A stretch of DNA of 63,970 bases, counting the filler, from Klebsormidium nitens (taxonomy: Eukaryota > Plantae > Klebsormidiophyceae), in NCBI GenBank assembly GCA_000708835.1. It is 5 parts of 5 records of this genome, joined end to end, with 100 filler letters (N's around TTAATTAATTAA, not from the genome) between each part and the next. Parts side by side here need not be neighbours in the genome. Positions count along the whole stretch, not along the records: positions 31,147 to 49,795 come from DF237915.1; positions 49,896 to 55,440 come from DF238419.1; 3 more parts are not named here. One strand, written 5' to 3'. The position numbers and the translations under genes are program-made. Of this stretch, positions 31,047-60,364 are shown one piece after another; within the stretch, counting starts at the first letter, position 1; each line of letters starts with the position of its first letter. A model generated the notes under the pieces. It was not told the DNA's origin and did not search any database. It saw only the letters and a program-made list of their open reading frames with translations.

Positions 31047-31146
31047 NNNNNNNNNNNNNNNNNNNNNNNNNNNNNNNNNNNNNNNNNNNNTTAATTAATT
31101 AANNNNNNNNNNNNNNNNNNNNNNNNNNNNNNNNNNNNNNNNNNNN
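31047..31146. other. Assembly gap with artificial TTAATTAATTAA linker (same at 49796-49895, 55441-55540, 60265-60364); plain N gap at 34754-35332
   Basis: Each linker gap is exactly 100 nt with a 12-mer carrying stops in all six frames. Confidence 0.97.
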
Positions 31147-34900: not shown

Positions 34901-37900
34901 NNNNNNNNNNNNNNNNNNNNNNNNNNNNNNNNNNNNNNNNNNNNNNNNNNNNNNNNNNNNNNNNNNNNNNNNNNNNNNNNNNNNNNNNNNNNNNNNNNNN
35001 NNNNNNNNNNNNNNNNNNNNNNNNNNNNNNNNNNNNNNNNNNNNNNNNNNNNNNNNNNNNNNNNNNNNNNNNNNNNNNNNNNNNNNNNNNNNNNNNNNNN
35101 NNNNNNNNNNNNNNNNNNNNNNNNNNNNNNNNNNNNNNNNNNNNNNNNNNNNNNNNNNNNNNNNNNNNNNNNNNNNNNNNNNNNNNNNNNNNNNNNNNNN
35201 NNNNNNNNNNNNNNNNNNNNNNNNNNNNNNNNNNNNNNNNNNNNNNNNNNNNNNNNNNNNNNNNNNNNNNNNNNNNNNNNNNNNNNNNNNNNNNNNNNNN
35301 NNNNNNNNNNNNNNNNNNNNNNNNNNNNNNNNAAACTTCTCAGCTCCTTCTTTGAAGTAGGGATGTGGATCCATATGCTCCTTCCTTCTGGCCGTCACTT
35401 TTTCGACAGTAAGGCAAGTCAGATTGAGTACGAAAAGCTGGACACGCCCGAATCTGGATCGCATGCAATTAAGACGACTTGAGTTTTGACTTTGAGTTGA
35501 TCAATATCTTTTGATCAAGATTGATTTCGTTTTGCAGGGGCCTCGTCATAGCACGTACAACATGTACGACTAAGTTGTGGGCGAGTTTTTGGAAATCGGT
35601 TTAATTGATATGTGTCAGGACGTAAGACATGGCACCTGAATGTTTCTTGATCAGCAAGCGTGGAAGCCGAGTTTCATTAGAAGCATGTAAGGAGCACTGA
35701 TGAGTTGCGGCCAAGGCCCAAATTGCAAAGAGAATCTTGCGGCTATGTATTCTCGTATTCGAACCTAATGCTTATCTCTGAATGCTTGTATCTGCGCCTG
35801 TACAAGATTAACACTCAAGATTAACACTCAGATAGCCACAAGGATATCGGTTGCGAGGCTCTGTCAGAGCTAAGCTCGATGGGCAAAATGATAGCTATAA
35901 CAAGGTACCCAGCTTGAGATTCAAGAAGTACCTAATCACCAATTGGGCCAGGCGCATTTGAGGTGTTGAGCTTTACGGATAGATTTTGCTTCGTCAGCAT
36001 CTCCTATTGATGAGTTCCTACACTGTGTACGACACTGTATGCATGTGACACATGTGTTGCTTATGAAAAGATGGTACAGTTTCGATGTGCCTACCTAAAA
36101 CAGCTAGGCCTAGCTAGTATTAGTTGAAGTTTGAACCCATGACGTTTTGGCACAACATGTTCGATCGATTAGCAAAGCCATCTGTTTAGGGTTCGGGCTA
36201 GGGTTTAACCCTTTTGCCCACGATCGCTCAAGCACGTTCTACCGTCGATATTTCGCCTGCGGCGACCGACGGCCGTAAGAACGCCTCGGCGGGGGCCCTC
36301 CCGGGCCCCCTCCCGACCTCGTTTTTGCCCGGTTTTCCCTCCCGACCCTTAGAACGCGGCCCGTGGCGCGACCTTGCATTCCCTCCCCGGGCGGCAGGGA
36401 TGGTTCATATGATATCCCCATAAGGGCTCTCTCCCAGACCATAGGGGATGGTCCCATCCATTACCGAGCTGTGGGCCGTTCCCACACAGCAAACCCTAAT
36501 GCTGGCTGGTACAGTGACTGTGGTACTCGTAGTTGTAGAGAGCCAGGCACTACCCGGTACCGGCCGGCCACTTGGGCTCTTCTCGGGCCAACTGTAGTAC
36601 CGGTATGCAGCTCAGGCACTATGCAGAGCAGAATTGACCATCAGTGGCGCTTGCCTCTTGCACCTCTGCCGCGCCAGCAAGCTCCTCTGCTCACATTTTT
36701 ACGGATTGTATCAGGGTTCTCTCAGTGGAGTCTGACTTGGCGGTCCCTCAGCAAAATTTCCCTCAGGAGTTCTCGCTTTCATGACCGTCGTTGGTGGTTG
36801 GTTTGTGGGCAAGGTAAGCTTTGCAAAATCATTGCGCTAAATGCGTGGCTGCCCTTTTCTCCTCTCTTTGAAGACAAGCGTGGTCCCCTCTTGGTTGATT
36901 ATGTCCTGTGTTCCTACCAATTAGAACATGATGGCACTTTGCATTTGCCTTTTATGATTGGATGACACATTTGGTGGTTTCTGAAGTATCCTCTGAAGTT
37001 CACCAATCAATTGCCCTTACTTCTACGAAGTTGGATTAGGCAAAGCCAGGACATTGAGGCAGACCTGAAAATGGGATCAGGGGTCAGCTCCTGGCATGCG
37101 TGCGCCACGTAACGGCTTGTTCTCTTAGTGTGTGTACTGGTCAACTGCGTCACTGCGTAACGGCTTGTTCTCTCAGAAGTGTACTGGTCAAGAACAGCGT
37201 GTTCATTGTATAAGTATTATTGTACCCGGGCTATTAGTTACAGAATCAAGGAATCAGAAGGGTTATGGCCAGGCTCCTGTGTGTACGAAGACAGACTTTT
37301 TTGAAGTACCATGAACTTGGCCTCAAGGCAGAACTTTTCAATCTTTCATCATCGATGGTAAGGTGGCAGGGTTCAGGAGTAGGTCTGGTCTCTTTCAATT
37401 GAGATCACATTCATTATTGGTACGTGGCAATCAACAAACGGCTTCATTCACCCCCACAAAGCATACTCATGTAGACGTTTCTATCACAGGGTCTGAGCGC
37501 TGGCGACCAGCAATAGAGTCTTGTCAATGACGCAGTCTGACAGAGGTATCTTGGGCACCAGTAATGGGAGTTGCGAGCAGCTGGGTTCATGCTGTCATCC
37601 CCAGAGCCAGGTAAGCGACGGGCTTGTTTGAAAACTAAGGCGATCTAAGGGACATCTGAGATGCAACTTCTTGACAGCTTCTTAAGTTAGGCGAAGATTA
37701 AGAGCCTCTTAGTAAATCAAATCCTGCGGCCTATCAGGAATTTGATCATCAGTCGAACCAGACAAATTTTTGGAGAGTATCATTGGCATTCTCTTGACGA
37801 GCCTGGTGACCTGCCGGCTTGTCAATAGGGTCTGTCAATCAGGCTTGCTTATATTGGGAGTGTGCTTCTCAAATTATATATTGGGAGGGGTCCAATCATT

Positions 37901-38919
37901 GAGTCCCTCAGGAAGCACCTTTTGCTAAGCTTTCAGAGTCAACTTCAAGGGTCGTCAGCCAGCTGGCCACATGCTCTGGGCTGGGCAAGTACAATTCGGA
38001 CGGTTTCTTGTTAGTCCTCAGTTGCTGGCGGCCTTTCTGAAGCGTCCGCAAGAGGTCGCCGGTGTTGTGGTAGTGCAGGCTGAGGCTGGCTGTTACGACT
38101 TTCCGAACATGGTGGTTTGTCTTGTGACCTGTTCAGGTGGTGGATCCCACAAAGGGTGCGCAACTCAAGGTTCGAGAAAGAGACTCCCTCCTTCTGACCT
38201 TTGATGCTCTTCATGCAAATTCCGGATACAACCATGGGGGACTCCGCCCAACACTCCCCCAACTGCTTAAGCCTCCAACAACAGACATATGGCCTCCCAG
38301 AAGCCGTCTCCCCGCCAGAGTTCCAAGTCCTAGTGAGGAGCGCGCTTCTGCAGACTACTGTAAGGGGGCAGCGCGTCTTTCGAAGGAACGCAGGGAGCGT
38401 GTGCAGGCTGGCAAGAGAGGTGTGCGGGTCGGCAGGTCTTGACTGGTCAGAGGCTGCCTGGCATGGGTCGCTGACCGCTGCAATGAGCGGCCTGGAGGGG
38501 CTCACTAGCGTCCAAGAATCGGCCATGCTCGAGGGCTTCAGGCAAGTTATTGCCTCGGCGGCTGCGGCCCACCTTGAGGGGCTGAAGCAGCCGGGTAAGG
38601 TGCGGGCCCGCAGAGCTAAACCCCAAAGCCCAAGCCCAATCCCCCCGGGCAAGCACACCGGCAATGATTGCAACAAGCAGCTGGGGGCACGTTCAGGTAA
38701 GCCATTGGGTTGCGTCTAAGTCCTGGTCTAAGTCCTGGTCAGTCTGGTCAGGCGATGCTAGGTCATTGGGGCTGTATTGACGGGGTGGGGAATCAAGTAC
38801 AGGGGAAGTAGTCAGTGAACTGGCTCTGACTGGGTGTGCCAGCATGTATTGCAGCGCCCCAATTGCATGCAGCGCTGTATTGCTTGCCAGTTTTAAAGGG
38901 CTTTTTCAAGCTTCTTCAC

Positions 38920-39230
38920 GTGCCAAGCTTTGCCTCTTTCTCTTTTAGAGTATAAGAGGTTGTTTCTTGGTACATGCTGTCAGCTACAAAGTCCTAATTA
39001 GGCATCTCAGCTAATATGGCAGGGGTCGCCGTCCCTTCAGTGTACCAAGGTTGCCAGTTTCTTTTTAAAAGTATAAGAGGCCGAATCTTGGTACATGCTG
39101 TCAACTACAAAGTCCTAATTAGGAATCTCAGCTGATATGGCAGGGGTCGCCGTCCCTGCAGTGCACCAAGGTTGCCTGTTTCTCTTTAGAGTATAAGAGG
39201 CCGAATCTTGGTACACGCTGTCAACTACAA
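38920..39230 (-). repeat. ~120-bp palindromic-core minisatellite, cluster 1 (3 copies, inverted relative to clusters 3 and 4)
   Basis: TG(T/C)ACCAAG...~35 nt...CTTGGTACA cores at ~38920 (degenerate left arm), 39042 and 39162. Confidence 0.85.
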
Positions 39231-40170
39231 ACTCCCAACCCCACTAGGTCAGAAGAAAGTGTGATGATTGCAAAAGGTGGGGGTGGGTTGCGGCGCACAT
39301 CAAGTTTTGCATGCCTCTCTCAGTTCAGACTCCAGGTTCTTACCCAAACTCTGTCTTCTTTTTCAGACCCACATACTCTTCACTGCGACGAGTGCGCTGC
39401 CACCACAGAGTTCGGGCTACGAGGAAGCAAGGACGGGGGGAAGGTCAAGTACTTTTGCAGAGGGCATGTCGAGTCAAGTGGCTGCTTTCGTGTCGACAAA
39501 GATCGCGCAGGTAAGAGCATGTCATCATTTCGGCGCGGTCCATGTACGCGAAGCTCTGAGCTGTTCGAGCCCTTGTCCGCCTGCATCTTCAGTCTTGAGT
39601 CCATACCCTATACAGCAGTGTATCAAACACCTTCTGCGCCTCAAGTGCAGCTTGGACGCAGAATCGGGTTGAATGGCGCTTGAAGGCAGAGCTTGCTAGA
39701 CTCGAAGAGGAGCTGCGGCAACTGGGAGGGGCATCGTCCACTACGGATGATTGCGGCCAGGGTTGCTGCCTGTCAGGTGAGCGTTATGATTCAGACATGC
39801 TGGCAGATTCGTCCGAGGCTGGACATGCGGCATGCGGCAGGTTTGTTCGAGCCTTGCCACGAGTCTTTTCCAGTTGCCTCTGCGGCCGACGGCTTGCTGT
39901 GATCCATCATATGACCCTGGACTCAGTGCCTCGTTTACCATTTGCAGCTTGCAACGAATCCTGGCAGAACGCGGCGCACTGGGATTCAACGCCTAAGAGC
40001 AGATCGCTTATAGGTGAGACAACCGATGGCAGCGCTAGCTCTGGAAGCATGCGGTTGGTGCATCTCAGGTGTTGACGGTTCCTTTGTTTGCACGAATCCT
40101 GCGTCCAGCAAGCAGCACTTGCCCGTGCTTCAAACGAACCGTGTTCCCTGCAGCAAAGCTTCTGGCGATC

Positions 40171-40197
40171 GGTTGCGTGGAAAGCAACCCCGGACCT
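40171..40197 (+). other. 2A/StopGo-like ribosomal skipping motif GCVESNPG|P
   Basis: ggt tgc gtg gaa agc aac ccc gga cct, in frame in exon 40154-40284. Spliced context is SRSLI|AKLLAIGCVESNPGP; it matches the G-D-(V/I)-E-x-N-P-G-P consensus except D>C. Confidence 0.6.
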
Positions 40198-40672
40198 GTG
40201 CTGGACGAGGTGACTGCAGCTTCGGGCGAGACCCGGCCACGGGATGTTGGCGGTCGGCCACCCATCCAGATTCCATCTCTTCGGGTAAGCCTTTCCCAAT
40301 GTGACATGGGTGTTTTGTGACATCTGCCTTCAAGTGACTTGGCTCAATCGAGTAGCTCACAGTTCTGTTACCGAGAACGGGTTCTTTGCTGGCAGTTCAT
40401 GGCAAGTGCATGCCGTTTTTCTCATGAAAGCATCATTCCCTACATTTGTGCTGCGCAGAAGGTTCATCCGGCACCATCCCAGGATCAACCTAACGTCGAG
40501 CGCATATATGCCGCCTCCTATGCGGATTGGCGGAAGAACAGTGGGCTGAGCGAGCAGGTGAGTCCTTTGCCCGAGCAATTTGAAAATGGCCGTTGCATGA
40601 GGAGGTGCAGCTTGCCGACTACGGACTATCCGTCCGGGCCTTGTTTGTTGAGAGACGGAGGTTTGCAGGGGA

Positions 40673-40840
40673 TGTACCAAGCTCTGCCCTCTTCTCTTTA
40701 GAGTAGAACATGGCAATTCTTGGTACAGCGCAGTCAATCACAGTGACCTGCTAGAAACGGCCGGCCTTGAGAGGATGTACCAAGCTTTGCCCTCTTCTCT
40801 CTTGAGTAGTAAATGGTCGATTCTTGGTACACGTGCCATC
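40673..40840 (-). repeat. Palindromic-core minisatellite, cluster 2 (2 copies)
   Basis: TGTACCAAG...CTTGGTACA at 40673-40727 and 40776-40831. The flank gcgcagtcaa is the reverse complement of the ttgactgcgc flank seen at 43 kb. Confidence 0.85.
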
Positions 40841-41151
40841 AATTCAAGGTTCTTCAGTTCGCAACTTTTCGAGTATTCTCTTAATTGATCTGCTCTCTTC
40901 TACCCCTGTTATTGATCTTGAGCAAGCTTGTTTCCCACTTGAACGCTGCCTTTGTGCAGTGGTCTCCTGCAGTCCTATGCAAGCTTCTCATGCCGTCCCT
41001 CTTGCAGGCTGTGCCCGGCAAGCCTACGGCGGTGCCCGAGTCCGAGGGCGTCGTTGAACCTACTACCCTCGTCCCTCTTCAAGAACCACATACTGCTGGC
41101 GTCCCGGCGGAGGTAAGTAGACTACACCAGTTATATTGGTCGATTCACTTC

Positions 41152-41535
41152 TCAGTGAAGCCACCGACTTTGCTCGTAGAGCCTCTCGTTGTAGGAGTCC
41201 TCGAGGTAAGTCCGGTCTTTGGTATCATAATCAAGAAACGGAAGGCCCTCTTTGTCTTTGTACAGCCACCGACCTCCAAAGAAGCGTACCACGAAACCAA
41301 CGGGGCCCTTCACCTCGAAACCACCTCCTTGCTTGCATTTCCAAAACATTGCCGGCCAATCGAGATTCCTTGTCCAAGCGCCGCACCTGTACTCTTGTGA
41401 AACCGCGTCGATTGCCTCTGTAACCGCACTTAGAAACATCCTTGCCGACTCGCATGCATCTCTGTGATCATCGGCAAATTTGAAGAGGTCGCTGAGCTGC
41501 TTGTCCGACAGGCCCATGTATGCTTTGGTAGCCAT
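41152..41535 (-). CDS. Intronless 127-aa ORF nested antisense in an intron of gene A; unknown product
   Basis: ATG-initiated, with globular-looking composition (aromatic and charged residues), lying between gene A exons 41008-41112 and 41804-41971. No motif recognised. Confidence 0.4.
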   Translation of the reverse strand: MATKAYMGLSDKQLSDLFKFADDHRDACESARMFLSAVTEAIDAVSQEYRCGAWTRNLDWPAMFWKCKQGGGFEVKGPVGFVVRFFGGRWLYKDKEGLPFLDYDTKDRTYLEDSYNERLYEQSRWLH

Positions 41536-42066
41536 CAGCCCGAAATTTGCTCCTTTGGTGGCGAAGTCATTCCCCTAAGCTCATTCGGCTTCACTCCTAG
41601 CAGGTCGATGATTCCTCTGCAAGCACGACTGTTTCGAGCCTCGAGGACTCCGAGGACGTGAACCTTGGCAAGTTTGTTTCCTGGAGGAAGGCCAGAGCTG
41701 CGGAGGTCAGCGAAGCTGCATCCGGACCTACATAGATGTGCGCTGTTCCTTGCATGTCGGCCTTTGAGCAGAGGTGTCTTGTGCGGGTTTGGGGTTGCTG
41801 CAGGGTGGTTCGGAGCCGTTTCGGCTCGATGCAGACGAAGAGGCCCGCGGTATGGCCCCAAACCCGACGGCAGCTGGCGAGCAGGCGGAGGAGCTGACGC
41901 CGGTGGACAGACTGGAGGAGGAGTCGACGCTAGCAGGCAGGTTGGAGGAGGGGCCCGCGCTACCGGATGAGGTAATGTCTGCTCGGAGAAGATTGTGAGC
42001 ATTGTAGGCTAGACATGGGCCGTGAACGTTACTTAGGGGAATCGAACAACCCGAGTAGAGCAAGTT

Positions 42067-42490
42067 ATGGGGTACTCCACCAAGTTCACCGGCCGTTTTG
42101 CGCTTTCCAAGCCGCTCAGTAAGGAACAGCATGATATTCTCCAGCAAGTACAGCTGCACCGTCATATTGAGGGCTCGCTGCCCCCATACACGGTCGCTGG
42201 AGACTGTGACGTGCTGCTCGTTCATAATGAGAACCGGCGTTGCCGGTGTGATAGGTGTGAAGGGGCTGATCTGTGTCCACCGTTTCCACGGTATTGCCAG
42301 TGGATACTTTCTCCGAATGGCCGTGCTCTCATGTGGGACGGCGGGGAGAAATTCTATTGCTATCTGGCCCTGGTTGAAGTATCTGATGTCGCACTTTTTT
42401 CTGCCTTGGGGAGTGGAACTGAAGGGGACTGTCAGATGGCGCGGCAATGGGAAGAGTGATTGTGGCGTGATTGTGGTCCAGTCCAACGAG
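42067..42490 (+). pseudogene. Phage/virus-type conserved hypothetical domain (MGYSTKFTGRFAL...CQW...WDGGEKFY..PWLKYLMSHFFLPWGVELKGTVRW), +1 frameshift at ~42366
   Basis: ORF 42067-42459 joined to the frame of 42098-42514 reconstructs a motif pattern I recall from small uncharacterised phage proteins. It is flanked by a possible phase-0 acceptor (42060) and donor (42491). Confidence 0.55.
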
Positions 42491-43059
42491 GTCTGCGCAC
42501 GTGCCTTACCTTGATCAACTTCCGACGAGAACCAGACAACCAGCACCCTTCGATCTTGAAGCCTCTTGAAATTTCGGCAGTATCTCAAACCCTCTTAGAG
42601 GCCTCTAAACGTTCTTGCTTTTGTCGCGGTGGCTTTCCACTGAAGCAGCTAGCTGACGCCACCTTGTGAAGGGCCAAGAACGTAAACCAAAAGCTCTTGA
42701 ACGTGCACTCAACCTTTTTCCTCACGCAGGATCCGGAAGACGCCAGCGAGAGCATCGAAGACTCATCCGGAGAGACGGAAACGGAGGAAGAGCCGGACTC
42801 CAGCGATCTGAGCGCCATGGATGATTCTGAACAATCCAATGACGATCCCAACCTGCACCGTGCCGTTGACCAGACGCGAGAGAAAGAGAAGCTGCCACGG
42901 TCTGTGAATGCTGCTCTCGCTGGCATGCGCTTAGAAACGGAGAGGAGGCGCCAACAAGAAGAAGCGTCGGGCTCTGATCGGATTCGCCAGTCTGCCGTGT
43001 CCGACTTCGACCCTGGTTCCGGGTCGGATCACAAGTGAGAGAGACTGTACGTTTTTGAG

Positions 43060-43620
43060 GGTGAACTATGGTTGACTGCGCTGTACCAAGAATTGCATTT
43101 TACTCTTCTAGAAAGACACAGGCGAAACTTTGTACATGACTGCAGGAACGACCATGCCTGTGAGTTTCCGAAATATGTTTTGTAGTTGACTTTGCTGTAC
43201 CAGGATTCGCTCTGTACTTTTCTAAAGAGAGACAAGCAAACTTTGGTACATCACTGCAGGAACGGGCATGCTCAAGTGTGAGTTTCTGCTCGGGCACTGT
43301 CATGGATTGGGTTGTACCAAGATTCGCCCTTTTCTTTTCTAAAGAGAAACTCGCAAACTTTGGGACGTCACCAGTTGCAGACCCCCCATGCATGTGTGTT
43401 TTCGAAGAATCTAGCTTTTCTAGTTGACTGCGTTGTACCAAGAATCGCCCTTTACTCTTCTAACCTGGAGAAACAAGTGAATCTTCGTAGAACACTGTAG
43501 AAACGCCCATGCCTGTGAGCTTTCGAAACGGTAGCTTTTGCAGTTGACTGCGTTGTACCAAGAAGCTTCACTTTTTCGAAGAGAAACAGGTGAACTTGCT
43601 ACAGGCACCGTTTTGTGGTA
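43060..43620 (+). repeat. Palindromic-core minisatellite, cluster 3 (5 copies, period 114-121 bp)
   Basis: TGTACCA(A/G)G at 43082, 43196, 43313, 43434 and 43554, each followed by a pyrimidine run, a purine run, a degenerate CTTGGTACA and a variant of ctgcaggaacg..catgc. Confidence 0.9.
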
Positions 43621-44898
43621 TGCCATCGGACCGTTTTTGCCAGACTTTGGACACGAAGACTTATAGTTTGTTACCCGCAGAGGGCATTGATCTGAATATT
43701 GTGTGTTCCTTTTTATTCAGGGAGCAAGGCGCCGCTCATGGGCTGTCCCAAGGCTTCACCGCTGTGCCGGAGCCGGAGATCCGCTCGGAGCCTCTGACCG
43801 GGAATGAGGTGTTCAAAAAGGACGAGTTCCGTGTTCTGCGAGTGCACGAATTCGGCACCAATTGCTTCCATCAAGCTGGAAAGAACTTGAGCCGTTTTCG
43901 TAAGCACTTCATGCAACAAGAGGCCGCCCTGCTCAACCATGGAGTGCAAGTGGCCCTCCACAAGTTCTCTGGCAACCGTACCGAAGCAGGGGTTCCAATC
44001 GCTTGGCGCAGCTTCGCCTCCTATCCTAATTGGGAGACAGCCCAGGGAAACCTCGAAGGCCACGGCTCTGTCTTTGAGGTCATCCAAAACGGGAGGCCGT
44101 GCAAGCCCTACTTAGATCTGGACGGCAAGGACGGGCTCCCCTTAAAGTGCAAGTCGAAGCAACCCGCTGCGGCCTCAGCCGGAACAGGGAAAGCCCAGGT
44201 GAAACTCCTGAAACGGGGCCCAGCACTCAGGCCGGGGAAGCCGCGGGCAGTGTAGAGGAACATGGGAAAGGCGGTGAGGGGCGGTTCAGGCGCGAGGAGG
44301 TGATTGAGATTATCGAGCGATGGGCAGTGGTCGTCTTCAAGGATTCATATGCCCTGGACTTAGAGCCAAGCAGCTTTGTCTGGTTAGAGAGTGGGGGGCA
44401 GACCAAGTTCAGCCTCCACCTAACAATCAACCAGCTTCTGCCCCGCCAGTTGGTCTTCCCATCGAATTCCGAGAATGGCGCATCACACTTTGCCACACAC
44501 CTCAAGCAGAGGCTACAACCCTGGCACCCCACTATTGCCCCCCTCATCGACTTGAACGTGTACTCAAAGGATCGGGAGTGGCGCACACCGGGAAGCGCCA
44601 AGGTCGAGAAACCGAAGAGCGTCCTGAGATTCCTGAAGCCTGCCCACACCTGGAGAGACGGGCTGGTGACTTGGCTGCAATCTCTCGAGGTAAGCTGTGT
44701 GGTTCCTGTCCTGGGGTTCGTTTGTGCTCCAACCGCTGCCAGTGAAGGGCTTTTCTAACCCTCTTTCCTTGTTTGAAGTGACAACTTCTCTCGTGCCCTG
44801 AAGCGTCATCAACGTGTTGGGTCGCTTTTCAGTCAACGAACAAAACAAGCCTGGTAACCAGATTGTAAACCCTCTAGTATGCAATTTCGACCAGTCGA

Positions 44899-45165
44899 TT
44901 TTGCTGCTAACCAATCCGCAAACCAGCTTTTTTGGTTGCTAACCAGCCTGCTCACTCTTCGTTTTGCTGCTAACCAGCCTCCTAACCAGCTGGTTTGCTG
45001 CTAACCAGTCCGCAAACCAGCTTTTTTAGTTGCTAACCAGCCTGCTACTTCTTCGTTTTGCTGCTAACCAGCCTCCTAACCAGCCGGTTTGCTGCTAACC
45101 AGCCTCCTAAGTCTTCGTTTTGCTGTCAACCAGCTTCCTAACCAGCTGGTTTGTGCCAACCAGCT
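44899..45165 (+). repeat. CTAACCAG-based simple repeat with ~94-bp higher-order duplication, in a gene A intron
   Basis: Many (g)ctaaccagc units; 44902-44995 is nearly identical to 44996-45090. Confidence 0.85.
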
Positions 45166-48100
45166 TCTCAGCCATTGTTCTTTCTTATTGTCGGGAGGAT
45201 TTGCTTCTAATCCACCTGTTGTACCAGACACATCGGTTCGCTGTTTACAGTCGCTTTACTGACTTTGCTTTCACTGGGCCCAGGGCCCAGTTTTCCTTTC
45301 AACCTATCTTTGTGAGGAGGTGGCCTTTTCTGATCACTTCAGCTCCTGAAAGAGCTCCCTTTCCTCTGTGCGCCTGTATGCTACTATTGCTGATCATGTG
45401 TTGTCGAACTGTGCTGCAGGCTTGCGAGGAGATCAAACTGCCGTTCCAGCTGCCTAAAAATATGCATCGGGGGTTCAGAACCCCTCAGCACATGACCCGC
45501 GAGGGGACCGGGCGAACTCCACAGAATGGGGCTTTCGTTAGAGCCCGCATGCTGCAGTTGCTCAGAGAGCGGCTGCACCCCACTGCCTACGAGGAGGGCC
45601 CCGATCGGTTCAACTACTTTGATCGCTTAGAGCCTTGCTACACCGATCGCATCCACGAGAACCATCAGAACCTCACCTGTCATCTGACCCCAAATAGCAA
45701 GATATATGCCCTATGTTTCTGCACCAACGTCGAAGGCGGGGGGTCAGAGTCACCCTGCCGGACCAAGGCCTTCTACCTCGGGGACCTGTTCGAGGACGAC
45801 ATCACCTACGACTCTGGGGCCGTCTGTGTGGACATGCAGTATCTCCAGCGGGACCCCCAGGCATCCAGCCCCGAGCTTCTGAGCGAAGTGGCCCGGGGTC
45901 AGGCGCAGGCCACAAATGCTTTCAAGCTCAACACTGTGGCTAACGAGTAGGTATTTGTTTGACTTTGTGTCTTCACTTGAGCACGAGACTACCTGACTCA
46001 AATGCTGATTTTGTACATTCGTATTGAGGATCTTGTCTTTAAGAGAAGAACGGCTGACTTGTGGTACATGTCTGTGCACTCTTGGCACGAGGACGATCTG
46101 CATTTCCATCCATCGTGACAAGATTGTAGGACTTGGTGTACACTTGCTGATCCAATCCGTTAAGCCTGTGCACTGAAAGGTCCCGCAGTTTGAAATCGTT
46201 TTCGCTGCATGCTTATCCACTCTTATACAGGTTGGAAACATACCTTGCCTGCAAGTTGAGCAAATGCGCGCTTTCTCCCCCTTGCATGTTTTCGAAAAGC
46301 ATCGGAATCAGTCGCCGTGTGTTCTGATCTTGAAGAAGAAGAAGAACTTCCCCTCAGTGCTCCGGCTACAGGGAGATTCGAGTGTGCTTTGGGCCCCTTT
46401 CATTTCATTCTAGACTGAGGAGAGCTGCCGTGTATAATCTGACGAACTCTATGGTACTTGCAGGTGGCTTGCGGGGGCTTTTCAGCTGCTTGCCATCCGC
46501 TCTGCGGTTAACACGGGCAAGACGGAGTTTTGCAGTAGGGTAGTCGAGGAGATCTTTTGCCAAGTCAATGGCCGCCTGCTCAAGATACTCATGATCACAT
46601 ATCGGGTTGCGCAAAGCCAAAGATCTGAAGAAGCGCTTTCCGGGTGCTGCAAACTACCTCGATCTGAAAGCAGACTACAACGACGAGTTGTTCCCTGATC
46701 CCGACGACCCCAACGACTTCCAAACTGCGCTTCAAAACCGGGGCAAGTTCCCCTGGGTAGTAGTTCAGGTGGACAGCCTCCTCGGCTTGCGTCCGCACGG
46801 GATCGGCGAGGTCGCCCCTTTCGACCTCGTCATTCTGGACGAGGCCGCCAGCATTCTGGCGCATCTGTCTTCTGCGACCTTGCGGTGCGGCCTGGAAACC
46901 GGCGAGCTGTTCCTCGAGATCGTGCAGAAGGCCAAGCGCGTCCTGGCGATGGACGACGGCTACGGCCAACGCGAGCACGACTTCTTCCAGCTGGCAAGGG
47001 TACCAGGGAAGCTCGTAATCAACATGCGACGGGCTCAGGTGGGTTCTCTTGCTCCATGTAGGTCTGCCCTCGATTCGAGCATGCTTTGAGTCTTCGTTCG
47101 AATTCTGGGTTGCATCCTTGCTGTTCCCACGCATTTGGTTCGACTGCCCTGATATGGGTCGAGACCTGCATATGTAAAGTTGCTTGGTTGCGCCTCGCTT
47201 CGTTTTGGTGCTGTGTTAGCATCCGTACAATGTGCATTGGTGTTCTGTAGAGCTTCAATGAATCACAACTTGCAAGGAGCAGCCTGCCTCGGTGACAATG
47301 ATTGATGTTATTGATATATCCATTGTTCACTCGTTCTGAACCTTGACTTGAATTGCGCTGCAGGTGCCTCTCACGTTTCAGGTCGGTAAAGACGAAGTGC
47401 GATGGCTGGATCGTATCGTTGACGATTTGTCGGCCAATAAGAACGTTGTTGTTGTCAGTATGTCGGCCCGCATCTTGGATAGGATTCGTGATCGGGTTAC
47501 GAGTCAGGGAGTCCAGGACACTCTGGGGCTCGACCCGGATCGGAACATCCTGATTCATAGAGCAATGAGCGGGGGGGACAACGTTGAGCTCTACTCGAGA
47601 ACGTAAGGGTCAACTGGAAGGTTCGACTGCTGATGTACAGCCCTTCAGTCGAGGCGGGGGTGAACTTCGACGAGGCTTGGTTTCACAGCAAGTACCTATA
47701 CATGTGCAAGAAGAGCACGACAGCTCGGGCTGTTTGGCAGGCTTCATTGAGGGTCCGCCAGACGAAAAGCCCCGTAGTGCACTGCTTCGTGCAGTCAGGC
47801 ATCTCTGTGCGGCTCGACGGTGCCCGCGTGGTCCCGTTGGCACATGCAGAAGGGCTGGTAAGTGATCCTTCTGTCGTGGTTGCTCTAGACAGGCTAGTAA
47901 GTCCGCTCGTGCATTGACTTCGCGTCTCCATGACAGAGTAAGCGATCAATGTTGACTCGATTGTGAACTTGCGTTGTCTCGCCTGTCGACACTGCACATT
48001 TGCTATATCCAAGCAGGATTGAACGTCGGATTATCGATGTTAGATGTGCCTTTTGAAGCCCCCTTTCACGTGGACTCTATGCTGAAGTTCTAACCCCTGA

Positions 48101-48334
48101 GCTGCTTCGATCCATTTGATGCAGGAGAGCGCTGCGGCGTCACCAACACAGTCAGAGCTGGATCAGGACGCGGAGGATGACGTGAGTCCCGAGGTACGTG
48201 CCAGCTTGCTATGCTTCTGGTTTGTTAAAGAATGCTTTTGGATTGCTTCTGATAGGGTTTCTTTCCGAGCAGGTCGGGAGTAATGGTTTAGTCTCTATTG
48301 ATCCATTTCGATGTTCATCATGAAAGTGTTACAG

Positions 48335-48650
48335 GTAGTGTTGTACCAAGATTTGCCTTTTACTTTTCTAGACAGAAACAGGCGATTCTCGGTCACTGCA
48401 GGAACGGCCATGCCTATGGTTTGTGGGGCGGCTAGCTTCAGTGGTTTGTTGGGCGGCTAGCTTTTGTGATTGACAGCATGTACCAAGGTTTGCCTTTTAC
48501 TTTTTTAGAGAGAAACTGGCGAATCTCGGTACATCACTGCAGGAACGGCTATGCCTAGCTTCTGTAATTGATTGCGTGGTACCAAGAATCGCCTTTTACT
48601 ATTCTAAAGAGAGACAAGCAAAATCTGGTACACGTTCTTCAGTAGAACAG
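48335..48650 (+). repeat. Palindromic-core minisatellite, cluster 4 (3 copies)
   Basis: (T/G)GTACCAAG cores at 48342, 48479 and 48578, with ggcgaatctcggtaca-type right arms. Confidence 0.88.
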
Positions 48651-49895
48651 CCTGGTTACCTCAAGCGATTACATTTGATTCATACCACCGTCAACCGCCT
48701 TCTGACATTGAAACTTAAAACCTCATTCTTCAGGCGCAGTCAGACGACGACGACAGAGAGCGACTTGACGAGCAAGTGGCCAGTGGGGTACCTCTGGAAG
48801 TGCCTCGTCGTGCCAAGCTGGCAGCTACAAATCGTCACGGTTCTCGTTGCAAGAAGGGAAAGGGCAAGGTGAGATTCCTTGTTTGCAAAGTGTTCTTCGT
48901 AGAGAAGCCCGCGCGACTTTGACCTCTAGGCTACTTCGATGGCCTACCGAAATTAGGGTAAGCTTGTGAAAGCCACGAGCTGCTGGCATCAAAAGGGCAC
49001 ACCACAAAAGCCAAAGTAATCTGGTGTGATTAGCTTGTTTGATTGAGATCTATACGCATGTGGTTCCTGCAGGTTCACTCTTGGCTTCACATCATTGCCT
49101 GCAATGATTTGCTGCACTCCAAGTCAACCTTGCTTGGGCGAGGCCTGAATATTGCTTTGTCGATCATGCAGGGTGGGCAGCCTGGGTTGTTTCCTCCACC
49201 GCTGCGTGTGACAACAGCGGAGACACTCCAGTTTCTCCAAGCTTGTAGCCTTCGCACAACGGTCGCCTGGCGCCGGGTACCCTCTCGCTTTGAGAGTGGG
49301 AGGGGAACGGTCCGATTGGTCGAGGACGGGCCTCTCTTTCGTACGCTGGGGCACACAGAAGCTGAGCGGCGCAACTCGGATGCCGGCTTGCTGCAGGAAT
49401 TCCAGATGCAGGTCGCGAAAGCTGGGCACGTGGTGAACGTCGAGCCGTACATTGAGCCCGCTCAGAAGGTACGGCGGTCAGGGGGGCTGACTCAAGAAGC
49501 ATACGATGTCATCGGCGCAAGGACGCTCGGGTTTGCAGAGTACAAGGAGCTGGCCAGCCTCAGGAACGTTGGCAGAGATAGGGGGACGCAGCGCGTTGAT
49601 GTGACGGCGGGGCTAGCTAGCACGCCGTTGGACTGAATACACTTACGGCTGTCAGTCTGCTTACACATGTGCGGAAACCATGGGCAAGCTTTGCAGCCAA
49701 CAGACAAGGAAGACACGTGAGAGCGCCTCTTTGTAAAAGTGTTGCTTGATGCTTCCAAGTTCTGTCTGCTGTGTTTCCACTCACGGAGAGGCTGGNNNNN
49801 NNNNNNNNNNNNNNNNNNNNNNNNNNNNNNNNNNNNNNNTTAATTAATTAANNNNNNNNNNNNNNNNNNNNNNNNNNNNNNNNNNNNNNNNNNNN

Positions 49896-50205
49896 AGTCA
49901 GAACGGCCCTCCCTTCCTCTAAACAATGAGGGTCGCCTTTTGACTGGCCTCTCTCGAAAATCCGGCCTGCCGGAGTCAGAACGGCCCTCCCTTCTTCTAA
50001 GAAATGATGGGCACCTTTTGAATCGCCTCTCTCGAACATCCGGCCTGCCACAGTCAGAAAAAGGGCCGGAGACAGAACGGCCCTTCTTTCTTCTAGGAAA
50101 CGATGGGCGCCTTTTGACTGGCCCCTCTCGAGCATCCGGCTCGCTGCCGCTGCAGTTAGAGTGGCCCCCTTTCTCTCTAGAAAACGATAGGCGCCTTTTG
50201 ACTGG
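49896..50205 (+). repeat. 78-bp palindromic tandem array (4 copies, left edge in gap) upstream of gene B
   Basis: AGTCAGAACGGCCC...tcta(g/a)aa...GGG(T)CGCCTTTTGACT units starting at 49896, 49974, ~50052 and ~50154. Confidence 0.85.
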
Positions 50206-50463
50206 TTGCCTCGTTGGAGTTTTTAGCTCTCACCTGCAGAACGGCACTCGATCCTTGAACGGCACTAGTAGTGAATCGAGGGCAACCTTTTGCAAAGTCA
50301 AGCTTATTCGCCCACAATCGAGAGCAACATGGAGGTCTGGTTTAGAGACAAACTCGTTTGAGCTTATACGTGTTTCCGCAGGCTAAGGGCTCATCGTGAG
50401 AAACCGCTCGAAAACGGTGCAGAAGTATGGAATAGTGAAATGTTGTGTGGCTTTTGTCTTCAG

Positions 50464-53400
50464 GAGGTGACCTCCGAGGTGGACGAATGGGGTCAGACAT
50501 GGTACTTCCGGTTTGCACCTGCACAAGCCGCCTTCCAGGAGAGCTTGATGCCACCGGGCGCTTTCATTGCGTCGCGCGACGATAAAACCGGAGGGTCCAA
50601 GATGTACACCGCGTTCAAGAGCACACAAACCTTCGAGGAGTACACTGCGAGGATGGCCGCCGACTGCCGAACGCCGCACTTGCACGAGATCTTGCTCGCT
50701 TCAGATGCTTCTTGGCTCTACTCGGACCTCGACTATACGTCGCGTGCCGACGATCCACAAGACTTTCTCGAGAGGCGCCAGCATCTCCACCACCTCCTCG
50801 AGCACTTCTGCACCCACATCATGCAGCTTCCTCCTGGTCTACTCCAGCCCCTTGAAGTTGCTGCATCCCATGGAGCCCTTTCCCACGGTCTTTACAAGTG
50901 CAGCGTTCACGAGGTTTGGAAGGGAGTCTCCTTCTCGGATCTGGAGGCGCGTACTGAATTCAAATCGGCCTTCAGCCACTTCTTGGACCACCCCCCGGCG
51001 GAGCTGGCACGCAGCGCGGAGTTCATTGGATACATGAAGCCCGACAGCGGGAAGAGAGAACAAATCTCGGATGATTCCGTCTACTCGAGGAACCCAAACT
51101 GGCGCACGCTCCGCTCAAGCAAACTCGGAAGCACGCGCATCCTCTGCCCGGACGAGAGTAGCTCAGAGCGAGTTTCCGACCACCTCATCGGTGTTCGCGA
51201 TGAGCAAGAACTGGCGCGCGCGCACAAGATCGACGTCCGACCGCTGCAAGAGTACAACGCAGCGGCTGGAGGGGGTGGCGCATCGAGTCGCGCGGCGCAG
51301 GGCCGTGTCAGCGATCGGCAGATCCCCGTACGATATTCCTCTAAGCAGCATGAACCACTGGAACGGGACCTCGGCCCGGAGGAGAGAGCGCGCCTGCTCA
51401 GGTGCTGTCAGCAGGATCATCCCGGGGCTATGCTAGGGCGGATCGAGCAACCATGCCCAGGGGTTTTCTGCGTCCACATCTGCAGCCCTCCGGAAAGTCG
51501 GACCTGTTGCATTGCGGGGCGAACGCATACCAGCGAGGGCAACGGACAGTATCTCGTCTACCGTCGGCGACGACCAGCCGAGGCGGCCTACAAGTGCTTC
51601 TCACCGAGCTGCCAGTAAGTTTATGAGCGGTTCTCGTTTCTATGCCGGCGCTGGTCTGGCCTTTCACAAACTCTAGAGATCATAGCGATCAAGTCAGAAA
51701 CCTCATATGCAACGCCTCCGTGTTCCAAAACCATGCCGCAAGAAGACCTGGGAAAAAGGAAAAGCGGGGCGCCAGATCAAAGGCCGACCTCTTCCGTTGC
51801 TGTCTCGTCAACGAGTTGCGACTTCATCTGATCCAGTCAAAAAGCGACCCCTTCTTCTATAATGAAGACCGATCCCTTTTGACTGTGGGCTTGTTGGTTG
51901 ATTGTGGCCTCGCCCATTATATCAAGTCGAGATTGCGTCCTCGTCTTTGTCGCCTCTCCACCAGATTGCCACGTTATGCGGTTAGTCAGAAACGACCTCG
52001 ACTCATGATGGAACCGGACCACATCGTGAAGACTGGCTATGTACATTCAAGAAGTCGTGCTTACCTTGATGCAGAGGCATCGAGCGCCTCTGCTCTCTCG
52101 AGACGTCCCTCTGTTGGACCGAGGAATTACTCGCTGCCGACTGAAATGCGACCCTATCCCACGGTCAAGATCCACTCGGAAACCCTGCGGACGCTTCTGG
52201 TGAAAGCGAACAAGGGGGTCGGGAAGTCGAAGGCCGGTACTGCCTATCTAGTGGAGATGCTCGAGAAGAACCCATCTGCCAGTTGCGTCGTCATCGCTGG
52301 CAACGTGGCGCTGGCTGACAAGCACCTGGAGGAGCTCCATCGAGCGGGGCTGACGGACTTCGTGCTCTACTCCGATGTCGAGCCCTCGTATATTGAAGAC
52401 GAGAGAATCGTCATCTGCATCAACTCCTTGCCCCGACTGAACTCCCTTGACAAAGACATCGTCTACATGGACGAGATCGACATGACGCTGGGCAATCTAA
52501 ACTCCGACGTTATGAGGGACCGCAGATCGGTGTTTATGGCTCTGCACGCAATGCTTCGGGTCGCACGCATCGTCGTGGGGCTGGATGCGAATGTGGACAG
52601 TCCGCGCGTAACCGAGTGGCTTCAAGCGGTCCGCCCAAACGCTCTGATGCACGCCATTTGGAACACGGGAGTTCGCGCCTCGGAGCGAACAGCTACTATC
52701 TGGCCTATGCCCTCCTCTGGGAAGTTGGAGGACCGCTTTGCTCCGATCATCAACCAGATTCTCGACGAGGTGGAGGCTGGTCAGAACATCTGGGTGAGTT
52801 TTGTCAGCCGTGATCCTGATGGCCGTTAATTCTACCAGTGGGTCATTGCAGCCGCAGTTCGAAGCGTCCGCGATGTACCTCCAGCTCGTCGGAATTCATG
52901 AACGATTGTATGCAATCAAAGATTTGTTGTGATAAAGAGAGTTGGACTGGTGTCCGCTTGAAAGCTGGTGATGCTTGTGCTTGACTGGCTCCTTATCAGA
53001 GGCCTAGGATCGATGCCATAGGCGACTCTCCTCCTTCTCTCGATCTGATGGTCGACGTACCTTATGAAACTTGCAGGTCGCCTCGACGAGCAGAACCTTC
53101 ATCGAGCAACTCGAGAGGGCATTCGGTGCAATTTTCACTGGCACGGACAAGACTCTTCTCACCTTCCACGGCGGAAAAACCTCAGCAGAGGACAAAGAGC
53201 AGCTCCGACAGGCAGTGGCTGACCCAGACCGCTACATGGTGGCCCACTGTATGGGATACTCTCCGACCATAGGGCCGGGAGTCTCGCAAGAGGCCCAACA
53301 CTACCACCGGGGCGTGGGAATCGCGCTGAACCGCCCAAACGACGGCCCCGATGTTTTCACCTTCACCCAGATGTTACAGCGGGTGCGAGATGGGGGAGAT

Positions 53401-54651
53401 ATCGACATCTACTACATGGAAATTCCAGCGCCAAAGTTCGTGCCCTCTACCAAAGAGGGCGTGTTCAGAGCAATCGAACGGCAAGACGCCGAGTTGCACG
53501 CTCTGGTGAAACCCTCTGAGGTGCTTGACTTCTTGGAGAGGCCGGGCAAGCGGCCCGTCTGCGATCGGGAGTCTGCAACCTGCATTGTGTATGCCAACAA
53601 TGTCCTGGCGAGGTACCAGAGCATCACAAACTACGTCGGCATCTTGACAAAGGATCTCGAACAGCAGGGTTTTCGAGTGGTGAACAGACTGGCGGAGCCG
53701 CTGGATGATGCCGATGAGCAGGGTGGACCGGAGCGTAGCGGCGATTTAGATCCCGATGCGAGCCTGTCAGACGACCAGTGGCGAGAAGCCTATTGTATCT
53801 CGCCGACGGAATACTACAAGATAAAGGAAAAAAGGAGGAAACTGAAAGGCGTGAGCGAGCTCGAGCAAAAGCAGGTGGACATCTACCATTATGCAAACGA
53901 AGTCTACAAAGTGAACTACAAACAGATCAACCACACATTTCTCACTACCTACTGCAACGAGACGGCCAAGCGCATGTACCTGAACTACCGCAGGTGGAAG
54001 TTTTTCCCTTCTTTCCTTCTTTTTTCCATGATAGTCATCGATGGTTTATCACACAGGCCAATGATGACCTATCTGCATACAACGTGATTGAGAGCACAGC
54101 GGTTTGCTTGTGATGAGACTCGCTAGTCCTTGATAACTCCAGGCCCTCTTTCCAGGTTCCAACGGTCTGCGTACATAGACGTCCAAGCTGAATGGGAAAA
54201 CGAGCTCAGCGAGGCAAACGATGTCCTCCCCACGAAAGACTACCTAAAGATTCGCGACCAAGCCAAGCACCGCGTCGTGTTTGCATACCGCCTGCTCGCA
54301 GAGATGCTCCAGATCGACCCCGGAAATTTCGACCGTCTGCAACTCGGAGCTGCTTACCACGTATCAGAAAAAAACCTTCAAGCTGCCTACTCCAAGCTGA
54401 TCGAGCCAAACCTCTACACTGCAAAGCTTCGATACGAGATCAAACAGAAGGTGAAACGAGACGAGAACGGCCGTCCGATGATGACCGAGGCATTGAAACG
54501 CAACGTGGTAAAGGCAATCCTCGAGAAGGGTTTAGGGCTGAGGTTTGTGGAGGTGCCGGGGAAGAAGAGCAACAACGAATTTGTGAAGGAGCACGAATTC
54601 AGCCCGGAGCTTTGGAAAGAGGTGCACGCTACATACGGACCCGTAGTCTAG
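50464..54651 (+). CDS. Gene B: spliced AEP primase-Zn finger-UL9/origin-binding-like SF2 helicase fusion (~1080 aa). Exons 50464-51614, ~52085/52103-52793, 53077-53993, 54156-54651; possible tiny first exon ATG GAG at 50329-50334
   Basis: AEP motifs: LHEIL...WLYSDLDY, CSVHEVW, DDSVYSRNPNWRTLRSSK. Zn finger: CCIAGRTH...YKCFSPSC. Helicase: Walker A KANKGVGKS, Ia VIAGNVALA, Walker B VYMDEID, YSPTIGPGVS, FTQMLQRVR. No lesion seen in the exons; the start codon and second acceptor are uncertain. Confidence 0.82.
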
Positions 54652-56125
54652 AAGCATAAAGATTCATATCATAATCAAGACTTGTGAACTAGTACGACAT
54701 GTACATAAAAGGCTGCTATATGTGGATATGTTCTGGATAATCCTGTTAATACCTTCATCAAACTACCGCACATCGACATAGAAGACCCGGTTAATTTTCC
54801 CCGAAAGTGGCTGTTTTCAGCGATATGTCGGATATTTGTAGTTGGATTCCCGCGGATTGTTGGGTGCGTTTGCGGAGACCCATCAACCGCGGCCTGGACC
54901 CGTAAGCTACACTTAAAAAGCTGTATGCACCGTCGACATGCTGCGTATGCATTGTTTCAAGTTGAAGAAGGCGTCGAGTCATGTTGTTTTCCTACAAGAA
55001 CGGGTTGCAACTCAGTCAAAACCGCCCTACTCTTTGATATAAAGGAGGCGACTATTGACTGAATGAACCACGTTTGAGCTCACGTGGCTCCAAGCCGGTG
55101 GAAGTGCAATTTAATTATAGAACATCATCAAAGACACGGGAGATTATTGCGAAGAGCTTTCCGACCACATGCCACAGCAAACCCTTGCTGGTTGTTGTCT
55201 TAGTGGCTAGTAGTATATTACGAAAGGTACTCACGACCAGTAATCCCAACCGGCAAACTTCGAGGGAAACTTCGAGGGTCCGATCGCGCATTCTTTCCTG
55301 GGGCATACGAAACGACATGAATCGATATTTCTTTGGTTCACTTCATGTGCAGTAGGAAAAGCGCACCTAAGAATCCCCCTAGCCACCGAAACTCAGACTG
55401 AACCTGATCCGATGTCTAGATATCGACTCGGTATTGTGACNNNNNNNNNNNNNNNNNNNNNNNNNNNNNNNNNNNNNNNNNNNNTTAATTAATTAANNNN
55501 NNNNNNNNNNNNNNNNNNNNNNNNNNNNNNNNNNNNNNNNACCGCTAGGAGCGCTCGCAAAGTCGTGTGCTTGCTCACCGGGGCGCAGACTTCCTCGAAG
55601 TCAATTCCTTGCTTTTGCAAGTACCCTTTCGTCATCACCCGAGACTTATACCGCTCCATGTTCCCAAGCGCATCCCGCTTGATCTTGTAAATCCACTTCA
55701 TCGAAGCCGGTTTCACCCCTTCCGGTTTTTTCGACAAGCTCCCACGTCCCATTTTCCAACAAGGACCGCATCTCCTCGTCCATCGAGTTCCGCCGAAAAA
55801 CGCTCTCTTCTCCCCCTATGGCTTCCGGATGCTCCCCCAATCCCTTAAGGTGCTTCCCCGTTTCCGCCGCCAAATTCGCCCGATACCACTCCCCGGGCGC
55901 CCACCTCGCTCTAGCGGGGTATCTTCGATCCGCCGTCTCTTCTCCATCCGTTTCAACGGACTCCTCGCTCCCGGTGCCGGCCTCCCCCGTAGGGGTAGCC
56001 CCTGCACCGGGCAGAGTGTCGGTCACCCCCGTAGGGGTATCCCCTACACCCATCCGAGTCGGGGGGCTCACCGACTAGGGCCGCGAGCAGCCCCATCCTC
56101 CTTTTCCGGATCGGAGCCAAGCTCA

Positions 56126-56593
56126 CACAACGCAACCACGCCAAGTTTCAACGTACGGTGAATTTCGCGCGGCGGGCAGATTTTGAGCCCCGTAGACTCG
56201 GAGAGGCCCAGAATGGCGATTTTTAGGGTTTTAGGATATGGCCTAGTTTAGGCAGTTCTGCATGTAATATAAATTTGGAAATTGGAAATTTAGCCTTATT
56301 ACGAGCAGTCTAACATCGTATTAAGTTTTCAGTAAGTTCACAGGTGGGGATCTCAAACCGTCACGGTGGAGGTTTTTGCCTATGCAAAATCATAGAGTGA
56401 ATTTGACCGTGAGTTCCGAACCACGGCGGTCACTTTCAGTGGCTTATTGAAAATCGAACTTTCAGCCATCGAAACTTAGGGTTTTGACTCGGACCGTCGA
56501 GGGCTCCGGGACCGTGCGATTGTAAATCTGACGGTCGCTGAAGGAGGCCGGTATCGAACCACTTCGATCTGAAAATGGCGTGGTTGTGTTGTG
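56126..56593. mobile_element. 468-bp non-autonomous TIR element with CACAA termini and 2-bp TSD (CACTA/CMC-like), nested in the copia element
   Basis: TIRs cacaacgcaaccacgcca (56126-56143) and tggcgtggttgtgttgtg (56576-56593), 17/18 match. Flanked by CA on both sides; removal restores the copia frame RGPILIVELGSDP. Confidence 0.85.
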
Positions 56594-57304
56594 CAACGAT
56601 CAGAATGGGCCCACGCTCGTCCACGATGACGTCGCGGGAAGTCAACACCCTATCATCCCGCTCTCGGAGGACTTGGTAGGACTTAGAGTTGGGCTCGTAC
56701 CCCAAGAACACCCCTCGCTCGCTAACCCGCTCCATATTCTTCCAGTTTCCCTTGGGCACGTGGATTGTAGGCCCGCGCCCCAAATACCCGCAAGTGGTTA
56801 AGGTTCGGCTTCTCCTCGTAGAACATCTCCCAGGGCGTCTTGCCGTGCACGCTCGAGGGCACCCGGTTCCGGGTGTAGTTAGCCGTCACCATCGCTTCCG
56901 CCCAGAGCTCCGGCTTCAACCCGGCATCCTCTAGCAAAGCCCGCGCTCTTTCCTCGAGCGTCCGGTTCAACCGCTCCGCCAAACCGTTTTGTTCGGGAGA
57001 GTGCCCCGCCGTTGTGTGGTGCACCGTCCCTCTCTTCTCGAGGAGGGCCGTCATTCCCTCGTTGACATACTCCCCGCCCCGGTCCGGTTTGCACCCCCTT
57101 GACCTTCTTCCCGGATTGCAACTCCAAGCGGGCAAACACGCTCGCCGTGACCGCCGTGACGTCGCTTTTTCGCTTTATCGGTTGCACCACCGAAAGCTTG
57201 CTATAGTCGTCAAGGAAAGTGGCCAAGTACCTACTTCCCCTCTTTGACGCCACCGGCATGGGCCCGCACACGTCCATGTTCACGAGCTCGAGGGGCTCCG
57301 TACT

Positions 57305-57603
57305 TGTTGAAAGTGATAGTGGCTTAGGCGGCCAAATTGTTGGTTTAGGCCGTCGTTACTAGCTAGTTAGCTAGGCTAGTAGAAACCGTACGATATTAGG
57401 TTCTTACTTGATGTGAGCCGTTCGATGGGTTCTTTTGCTAGTAAAAGTTAGCCTTGAGCTAGGCTATTTGACTTGAGCTAATAGCAAAAGAACCCAATTC
57501 GTTCTAGGGGATGCTTGTAAGAGAGGAAGGCGCTTCTCTGTGAAGGCGCTTGTATGTGAGGGTGGTTTGGACCCTATGTTGTTACAAGCATGAGATTTCA
57601 ACA
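57305..57603. mobile_element. 299-bp solo LTR nested in the copia element
   Basis: TGTTGAAA...TTTCAACA termini; 5-bp TSD GTACT/TTACT; removal restores SKESTEPLEL upstream of the integrase core. Confidence 0.82.
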
Positions 57604-60264: not shown

Positions 60265-60364
60265 NNNNNNNNNNNNNNNNNNNNNNNNNNNNNNNNNNNN
60301 NNNNNNNNTTAATTAATTAANNNNNNNNNNNNNNNNNNNNNNNNNNNNNNNNNNNNNNNNNNNN

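Follow-up and report, generated by a model that had tools for sequence, protein, structure and literature searches.

Broken copies of two giant-virus-type primase-helicase gene families, each with its own hairpin, in Klebsormidium nitens

Two spliced primase-helicase genes and their copies

A stretch of 63,970 nt from the alga Klebsormidium nitens (the window; all positions count along this whole stretch) carries two long spliced genes on the plus strand, each encoding an archaeo-eukaryotic primase (AEP), a zinc finger and a superfamily 2 (SF2) helicase like herpesvirus UL9. Gene A extends from 38234 to about 49600, and gene B from 50464 or earlier (its start was not located) to 54651. According to the motif list, both have AEP motifs I-III, a C-H-C-(C) zinc finger, Walker A and B, and helicase motifs V and VI, and the Pfam domain Herpes_ori_bp (PF02399) is matched in exons of both. 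A first-pass annotation of the window had described a tandem pair. Co-oriented spliced genes are indeed found there, but a 100-base filler gap (49796-49895, N44-TTAATTAATTAA-N44), whose true size is not given by the sequence, lies between them, they belong to different clades, and both copies are frameshifted. The gap is one of four identical ones (31047-31146, 49796-49895, 55441-55540 and 60265-60364) with stops in all frames, and pieces joined across them need not be neighbors in the genome. As that annotation had noted, the two genes resemble each other by eye in motifs only (best direct match 23% over 126 aa, E 0.015), and their intron positions differ in alignment A1 as read by eye; the junctions are canonical GT..AG.

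The N-terminal part of gene A, about ten exons at 38234..43035, was located by tblastn of the annotated K. nitens gene KFL_009660020 (P0152) and the intact paralog P0153; it includes a Cys/His finger (39367-39510) and a low-complexity acidic linker. The AEP primase exon (43721..44689; motifs YLDLD, SLH and DLNVY) has a frame break near 44190, and profile A5 matches human PrimPol at E 1.4e-8. The zinc-finger exon at 45420..45946 is 100% identical to P0152, 60-78% to six paralogs and 41% to the intronless relative P0159; with one exon 100% identical to KFL_009660020, gene A is that annotated gene. Read by eye, the alignment shows an insertion in gene A that shifts its last zinc ligand from the position seen in the intronless relatives. 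The UL9-like helicase occupies two exons at 46464..47857 (Herpes_ori_bp at 46619-47038, E 1.2e-7), with frame breaks near 46620 and 47592. The last three recognizable exons lie at 48125..49633, where likeness to the 1945-residue P0153 stops at its residue 1674. Past this point gene A runs into high-copy repeat and then the gap, summed contig depth being 585 in the bin 49320-49790 versus about 15 elsewhere. This repeat, at 49590-49795, interrupts the gene just ahead of the gap and is possibly the end of a long terminal repeat; the missing C-terminal remainder may sit in the gap. Read through with X at its three breaks, the catalytic part of gene A has 1078 aa, and identity to the intact 1945-aa P0153 is 75%. 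A 31-base tandem array was also seen in one intron (44890-45164).

Gene B reads through, with X at its single frame break, to 1093 aa and is 62% identical to the B-type paralog P0001 over 1103 columns. AEP primase and zinc finger share an exon at 50464..51614 (motifs YSDLD, SVH and DDSVY; C-H-C-C), and the UL9-like helicase and C-terminal region lie in three exons at 52075-52793, 53077-53993 and 54156-54651 (break near 52125; Herpes_ori_bp at 52143-52793, E 8.5e-21). A structure model of the first exon (predicted local distance difference test, pLDDT, 89.7) had human PrimPol as its best PDB match in Foldseek (E 1.9e-11); among viral models it matched pithovirus primases, the Bodo saltans virus origin-binding protein and F1055L of African swine fever virus (ASFV; E 1.6e-13). 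A single-sequence fold was unusable (pLDDT 39.6).

DNA run X1 has contigs identical to the window that show each of the four frame breaks: the one near 44190 in contig 42321-44985, those near 46620 and 47592 in contigs 45055-46834 and 46831-47741, and that of gene B near 52125 in contig 51564-52234. An assembly error is disfavored by these contigs, though X1 may be the assembly's own sample. Because the breaks recur in DNA contigs and the match of gene A stops at residue 1674, the window copies of both genes are most likely pseudogenes. The joining of AEP and UL9-like helicase in one frame, broken here, is continuous in the intact paralogs P0153 and P0001.

Neither gene is single-copy. The A type counts at least eight annotated proteins, each with a scaffold number of its own and seven of the eight on records under 32 kb, and several of the copies are partial; the B type comprises at least three annotated proteins, the window gene and a copy about 90% alike in run X1. 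These numbers are lower bounds because the searches were word-limited and count the matches listed. Among those matches, the two types never share an annotated record (their locus tags lie on different scaffold numbers), and the named eukaryotic ones are from K. nitens plus one EukProt gene. There is weak evidence, from sequence searches, that A- and B-type genes are absent from land plants.

In X14 and X17, two runs guessed to be RNA, up to five or six paralog contigs are stacked over gene A; their GT..AG joints coincide with the introns predicted at 38696/39367 and 47038/47364, the former seen spliced in a paralog contig of X14; DNA run X1 does not show these joints. X14 also contains a 3593-base contig of P0001. 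None of the 57 (X14) and 52 (X17) contigs over the gene A stretch is 99% or more alike, and no RNA run was listed as carrying gene B, results which say nothing either way on expression of the window copies. A DNA contig of P0001 is shorter by 283 bases at 52549-53235, exactly the length of the second intron of gene B, and intron loss in this expressed paralog is therefore likely. Of ten diverged single-exon B-type open reading frames (ORFs) taken from public assemblies (39-65% identity to P0001), nine lose their match at residues 762-769, the place of an intron in gene B; this intron is thus old. In partial lists of differences between paralogs, 16 of 21 and 16 of 25 fall at third codon positions.

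Viral relatives of the two families

Family profiles match UL9 of herpes simplex virus (HSV; E 8e-40) and human PrimPol (E 2e-11); the family A profile alone matches both, and a B-only profile matches UL9 alone. A PrimPol-clade AEP with motifs I-III stands at the N-terminus. The fold is of PrimPol type but fused to a UL9-like helicase, and no RecQ family match was found, which argues against ordinary cellular PrimPol or RecQ genes. The helicase exon of gene B has 298 representatives at E up to 0.001, and PF02399 was present in all 24 of the relatives tested. Its 17 best matches comprise one long protein and, for the rest, proteins or exon fragments of Klebsormidium-like type; beyond these, most among the matches listed are uninterrupted proteins of about 1000-1300 aa.

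A helicase-core tree was built from 180 rows, 54 of the 234 profile matches (including P0011 and short B fragments) being dropped for having fewer than 230 filled columns. In it, family A groups within intronless metagenomic proteins with a support of 100 and adjoins L003, a protein from a giant-virus metagenome-assembled genome, and family B lies elsewhere. A 41-row mixture-model tree agreed (support 98), and on it a single clade of A plus B was rejected by the approximately unbiased (AU) test (p-AU 6e-5, with long branches in play). The two genes are therefore not a pair in the sense of sister copies.

The neighbors of the intronless relatives are dense, virus-like genes, including those with T5orf172, peptidase S74, PriCT-2, MutS and NPH-I domains, which supports the term giant-virus type; no capsid, PolB, polymerase or packaging ATPase occurred in 53 neighbor ORFs from 12 loci. 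A profile of the intronless relatives found 16 loci in viral contigs, one of which spans primase and helicase. Viral contigs scanned with P0159, P0001, A2, A6 and the hairpin pattern described below gave no match. A metagenome scan returned 30 loci (20-40% identity), none of them an intron-bearing Klebsormidium copy by identity, and a term search of the available text on mirusviruses gave nothing.

The fusion itself is known. Earlier reports, in their accessible parts, know it from mimivirus R8, ASFV pF1055L, oyster herpesvirus and yaraviruses (10.1101/2024.02.29.582850), and as NCVOG0024 (PMC3493329). The viral fusions (mimivirus R8, ASFV pF1055L, Ostreid herpesvirus 1 AAS00940, Yaraviridae SF2_hel) share domain order and intact-looking catalytic motifs with A and B. 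In contrast, the Klebsormidium genes are nuclear, intron-rich and multi-copy, family A has an additional N-terminal finger/2A region, and no viral core genes surround them. Mammalian UL9, as far as described in the sources available, is without a primase, unlike A and B. The survey of the window covered 116 further ORFs of 31147-63970 and four ORFs of 1-31046. In agreement with the first-pass annotation, which saw no capsid, DNA polymerase or integrase, none of the 116 ORFs encodes a capsid, a DNA polymerase, a tyrosine recombinase or a transposase linked to the element, and none belongs to the core cluster of nucleocytoplasmic large DNA viruses (NCLDV; capsid, PolB, A32 ATPase, VLTF3, D5); a tyrosine recombinase, the mark of Cryptons, could lie in a gap. 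Nor did the window ORFs yield the HUH endonuclease and capsid genes that mark Mriyavirus/Yaraviridae, whose genomes of 35-45 kb combine the two according to the available text of 10.1101/2024.02.29.582850. In literature mostly outside subscription papers and bioRxiv supplements, we found no description of the Klebsormidium families or of an AEP-UL9 transposon; further related work was seen in part (PMC4889955, PMC9170930, PMC12543377, PMC6222260, 10.64898/2026.06.19.733378, PMC9943667, PMC12768974).

Hairpins, a shared end and a 2A-like motif

Each gene is accompanied by its own imperfect palindrome. The type-1 hairpin, of about 55 bases (TGTACCAAG...CTTGGTACA), occurs in 13 copies and both orientations between 38918 and 48634, all 13 in introns of gene A, four of which carry it. 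The type-2 hairpin, of about 50 bases (AGTCA...TGACT), occurs in six plus-strand copies at 49896..55062, all around gene B: four upstream, one in the first intron and one at 55013-55061. The iterated palindromes reported in the first pass are thus real; exact TGTACCAAG was observed 15 times versus 0.36 expected, 14 of the 15 inside gene A. Hairpin profiles gave no convincing copy elsewhere in the window, and neither type was present in 46 fetched loci; type-1 units were also seen in other contigs, at joints of runs X1 and X5. When their boundaries were set at the arms, seven of 11 copies had a folding z of -2.4 or lower. The two types show a weak mutual likeness in the center (best cross E 5e-4). 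Herpesvirus oriS, by its available description, likewise forms a hairpin, with inverted boxes that flank an AT-rich spacer. By eye, the inner arm of type 1 looks like the core of HSV Box 1, a likeness that was not counted, and a generic hairpin scan was dropped as too unspecific (3.9 per kb in the element vs 2.5 in host DNA). Gene-specific repeats are common in this DNA, private exon or intron repeats being found in host-like genes at 9303-9637, 20224-20675, 22833-23748 and 25572-26984.

One contig each in X1 and X5 departs from the window after the last type-2 hairpin, with loose ends at 55048, which suggests that the shared B unit ends shortly past this hairpin; the first 30 loose letters past 55048 still resemble the window. 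On these two contigs the right end of B copies is near 55050-55080, homology stopping within about 430 bases of the stop codon, and the left end falls in the gap. Run X5 was not used for 35400-49790, much of that stretch being without coverage.

The N-terminal exons of gene A encode a 2A-like motif near 40150-40190 (plus strand), and LL-x-I-x-x-(V/I)ESNPG is found in all seven A-type proteins that include this stretch. The 2A/StopGo element is defined, in the accessible part of PMC13405545, as G(D)xExNPGP with upstream leucines. Its tables score a peptide of K. nitens GAQ93188.1 as skipping in a HEK293T reporter, and similar peptides as skipping, falloff or non-skipping; the window variant is not in the table. 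By eye, the N-terminus of GAQ93188.1 reads like family A. A second K. nitens protein, GAQ92643.1, has an Ndc10-domain top match and is tabulated there with a skipping 2A-like peptide similar to that of family A. It may reflect 2A use by tyrosine-recombinase transposons in this alga. Its Ndc10 domain presumably links it to Crypton recombinases.

Nested in an intron of gene A is a frameshifted phage-like ORF (42067..42502, plus strand; phrog_38666, E 7.6e-7). It is 41% alike to four viral contigs and has an 84% paralog in run X1.

Other features were noted around the two genes. A degraded copia-type retrotransposon (gag-pre-integrase, rve, SH3) lies at 55541-57900 on the minus strand, and an HTH_psq match followed by a broken DDE-like ORF, by eye a pogo/Tigger-like remnant, at 59030-60264 on the plus strand. 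At 60365-63650 (minus) lie frameshifted ORFs without introns that are rich in Ser and Asn, contain 54- and 81-base repeats and have weak tail-fiber matches; they look like a degraded virion fiber gene from an endogenous virus. Two related long single-exon ORFs at 12374-17519 (plus), one of 640 aa and the other broken, have a BTB-like start by eye and no Pfam match. Searches for tRNA and Rfam matches found none.

Selfish units or retained host genes

Taken together, it is very probable that A and B encode viral-type enzymes of two origins, that they belong to old, intron-bearing multi-copy families under constraint, and that the window copies are broken; on viral ancestry, intronization and multi-copy status the first-pass annotation is supported. 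As to how the families spread, we tentatively prefer, as a possibility that does not reach the level of probable, that the two separate giant-virus-type families, of which the window holds broken copies, each spread as a gene-sized selfish unit via their own hairpin; one selfish gene per unit and family is plausible. The protein of an intact member would load at the family hairpin, the predicted binding and initiation site; in family A, 2A skipping would probably have separated this protein from its N-terminal finger part. Once loaded, it would unwind the hairpin and prime synthesis, host polymerases would copy the gene, and the copy, needing no transposase, would return to the genome through end joining or strand invasion. 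The window copies would be non-autonomous relics. The signs of such a unit are the family-confined hairpins, the contig departures after the last type-2 hairpin, the broken copies and the 2A-like motif.

Several observations weigh against selfish spread. UL9 shares its helicase with A and B, but its C-terminal DNA-recognition domain (residues 536-851) is unmatched in a sequence test, profiles A1, A4 and A7 matching residues about 70-415 only. Integration is unexplained, since no nuclease, recombinase or transposase linked to A or B was found among the 116 ORFs. The hairpin profiles were trained on the copies found (11 of 13 and six of six) and the host control spans only about 31 kb; private repeats are also carried by other window genes, and four of 11 hairpins fold no better than z -1.6. 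The full non-canonical GxExNPGP core is present in two of seven A-type proteins (NPG in seven of seven; the window copy reads GCVESNPGP). Finally, the spliced paralog contigs, the roughly 17 exons of gene A and the conserved B intron fit long-kept host genes equally well.

Such host genes would be domesticated viral genes serving DNA repair, replication restart or antiviral use, with ordinary duplication and decay, and with hairpins that are passive intronic repeats duplicated together with the genes. We regard this as a serious possibility, though a somewhat doubtful one. The GT..AG joints of paralogs in X14 and X17 and not X1, the long P0001 contig in X14, the third-position bias and the intron conserved across diverged B homologues are consistent with it, and eukaryotic PrimPols are themselves said, in the literature accessible to us, to derive from an NCLDV-like source. 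Harder to accommodate are hairpins that are specific to a family and occupy four separate introns in both orientations, a common right-hand end beside a hairpin, the short records of seven of eight A copies and the partial state of several, and the 2A-like motif and nested phage-like ORF.

It is unlikely that a larger integrated element (an endogenous giant virus, or one with a tyrosine recombinase) carried A and B as cargo or left them as remnants, its remaining genes being lost or lying in gaps. Several NCLDV inserts are reported for K. flaccidum (PMC5294986, section 3.3), the fiber-like gene has its weak tail-fiber matches, and the second skipping 2A protein of K. nitens has an Ndc10-domain top match in the accessible table. 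However, the 116 ORFs include no hallmark viral gene or recombinase, the fiber-like piece is intronless and two more gaps away, and homology of the B copies stops soon after the stop codon. The published inserts of K. flaccidum/nitens also place viral-type genes in nuclear DNA of the same host, but in the available text they are viral-gene-dominated contigs with core markers, unlike the window stretch; the A/B type is not named there, though Figure S5 might include such contigs (PMC5294986).

That A and B together make up a single autonomous replicon of two genes, as proposed in the first-pass annotation, is highly improbable: they lie on the same strand less than 1 kb apart, gap aside, and their hairpins have a weak central likeness, but the fusion was already known, the genes are non-sister with different hairpins, the gap is unsized, both copies are broken, no annotated record among the matches listed carries both types, and the 22,974-base annotated record of gene A cannot hold all three pieces between 31147 and 55440 (23,615 bases without gaps).

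A wider claim is doubtful: that single genes with introns, encoding a giant-virus primase-helicase that recognizes family-specific hairpin origins in the introns and ends of its own gene, copy and reinsert themselves as a transposase-free class of eukaryotic mobile DNA element, which arose twice in Klebsormidium from two different viral donors. Helitrons and Replitrons, which are defined by an HUH endonuclease, are DNA transposons that bear introns and have a hairpin close to one end. An HUH Rep endonuclease gave no Pfam match in the window ORFs or in five A paralogs. As analogies rather than tests, two bacterial systems may be compared. RepA of N15/PY54 combines primase and SF2 helicase in one protein, with a helicase region homologous to P0159 (E down to 4e-10), and by the title of the cited paper PY54 repA is a minimal replicon; it differs in its DnaG-type primase, its bacterial host and its lack of introns, so the analogy is functional only. 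The IS-excision enhancer (IEE) of E. coli has, as described in the parts available, an AEP and a helicase and acts on mobile DNA (insertion sequences, IS) via microhomology end joining, but together with a separate IS transposase; its likeness to A and B is functional, by description only.

New here are the family hairpins, the end of the B unit after its last hairpin, the 2A-like motif and the nested phage-like ORF. The fusion is conserved in several groups of giant viruses, and with a candidate hairpin substrate for each family, in a streptophyte alga that can be cultured, it becomes possible to test directly how these enzymes recognize origins. If the families move themselves, they would represent a new eukaryotic route by which a virus becomes a transposon; if instead they are domesticated, they would represent a second capture of viral PrimPol-type enzymes near the origin of land plants.

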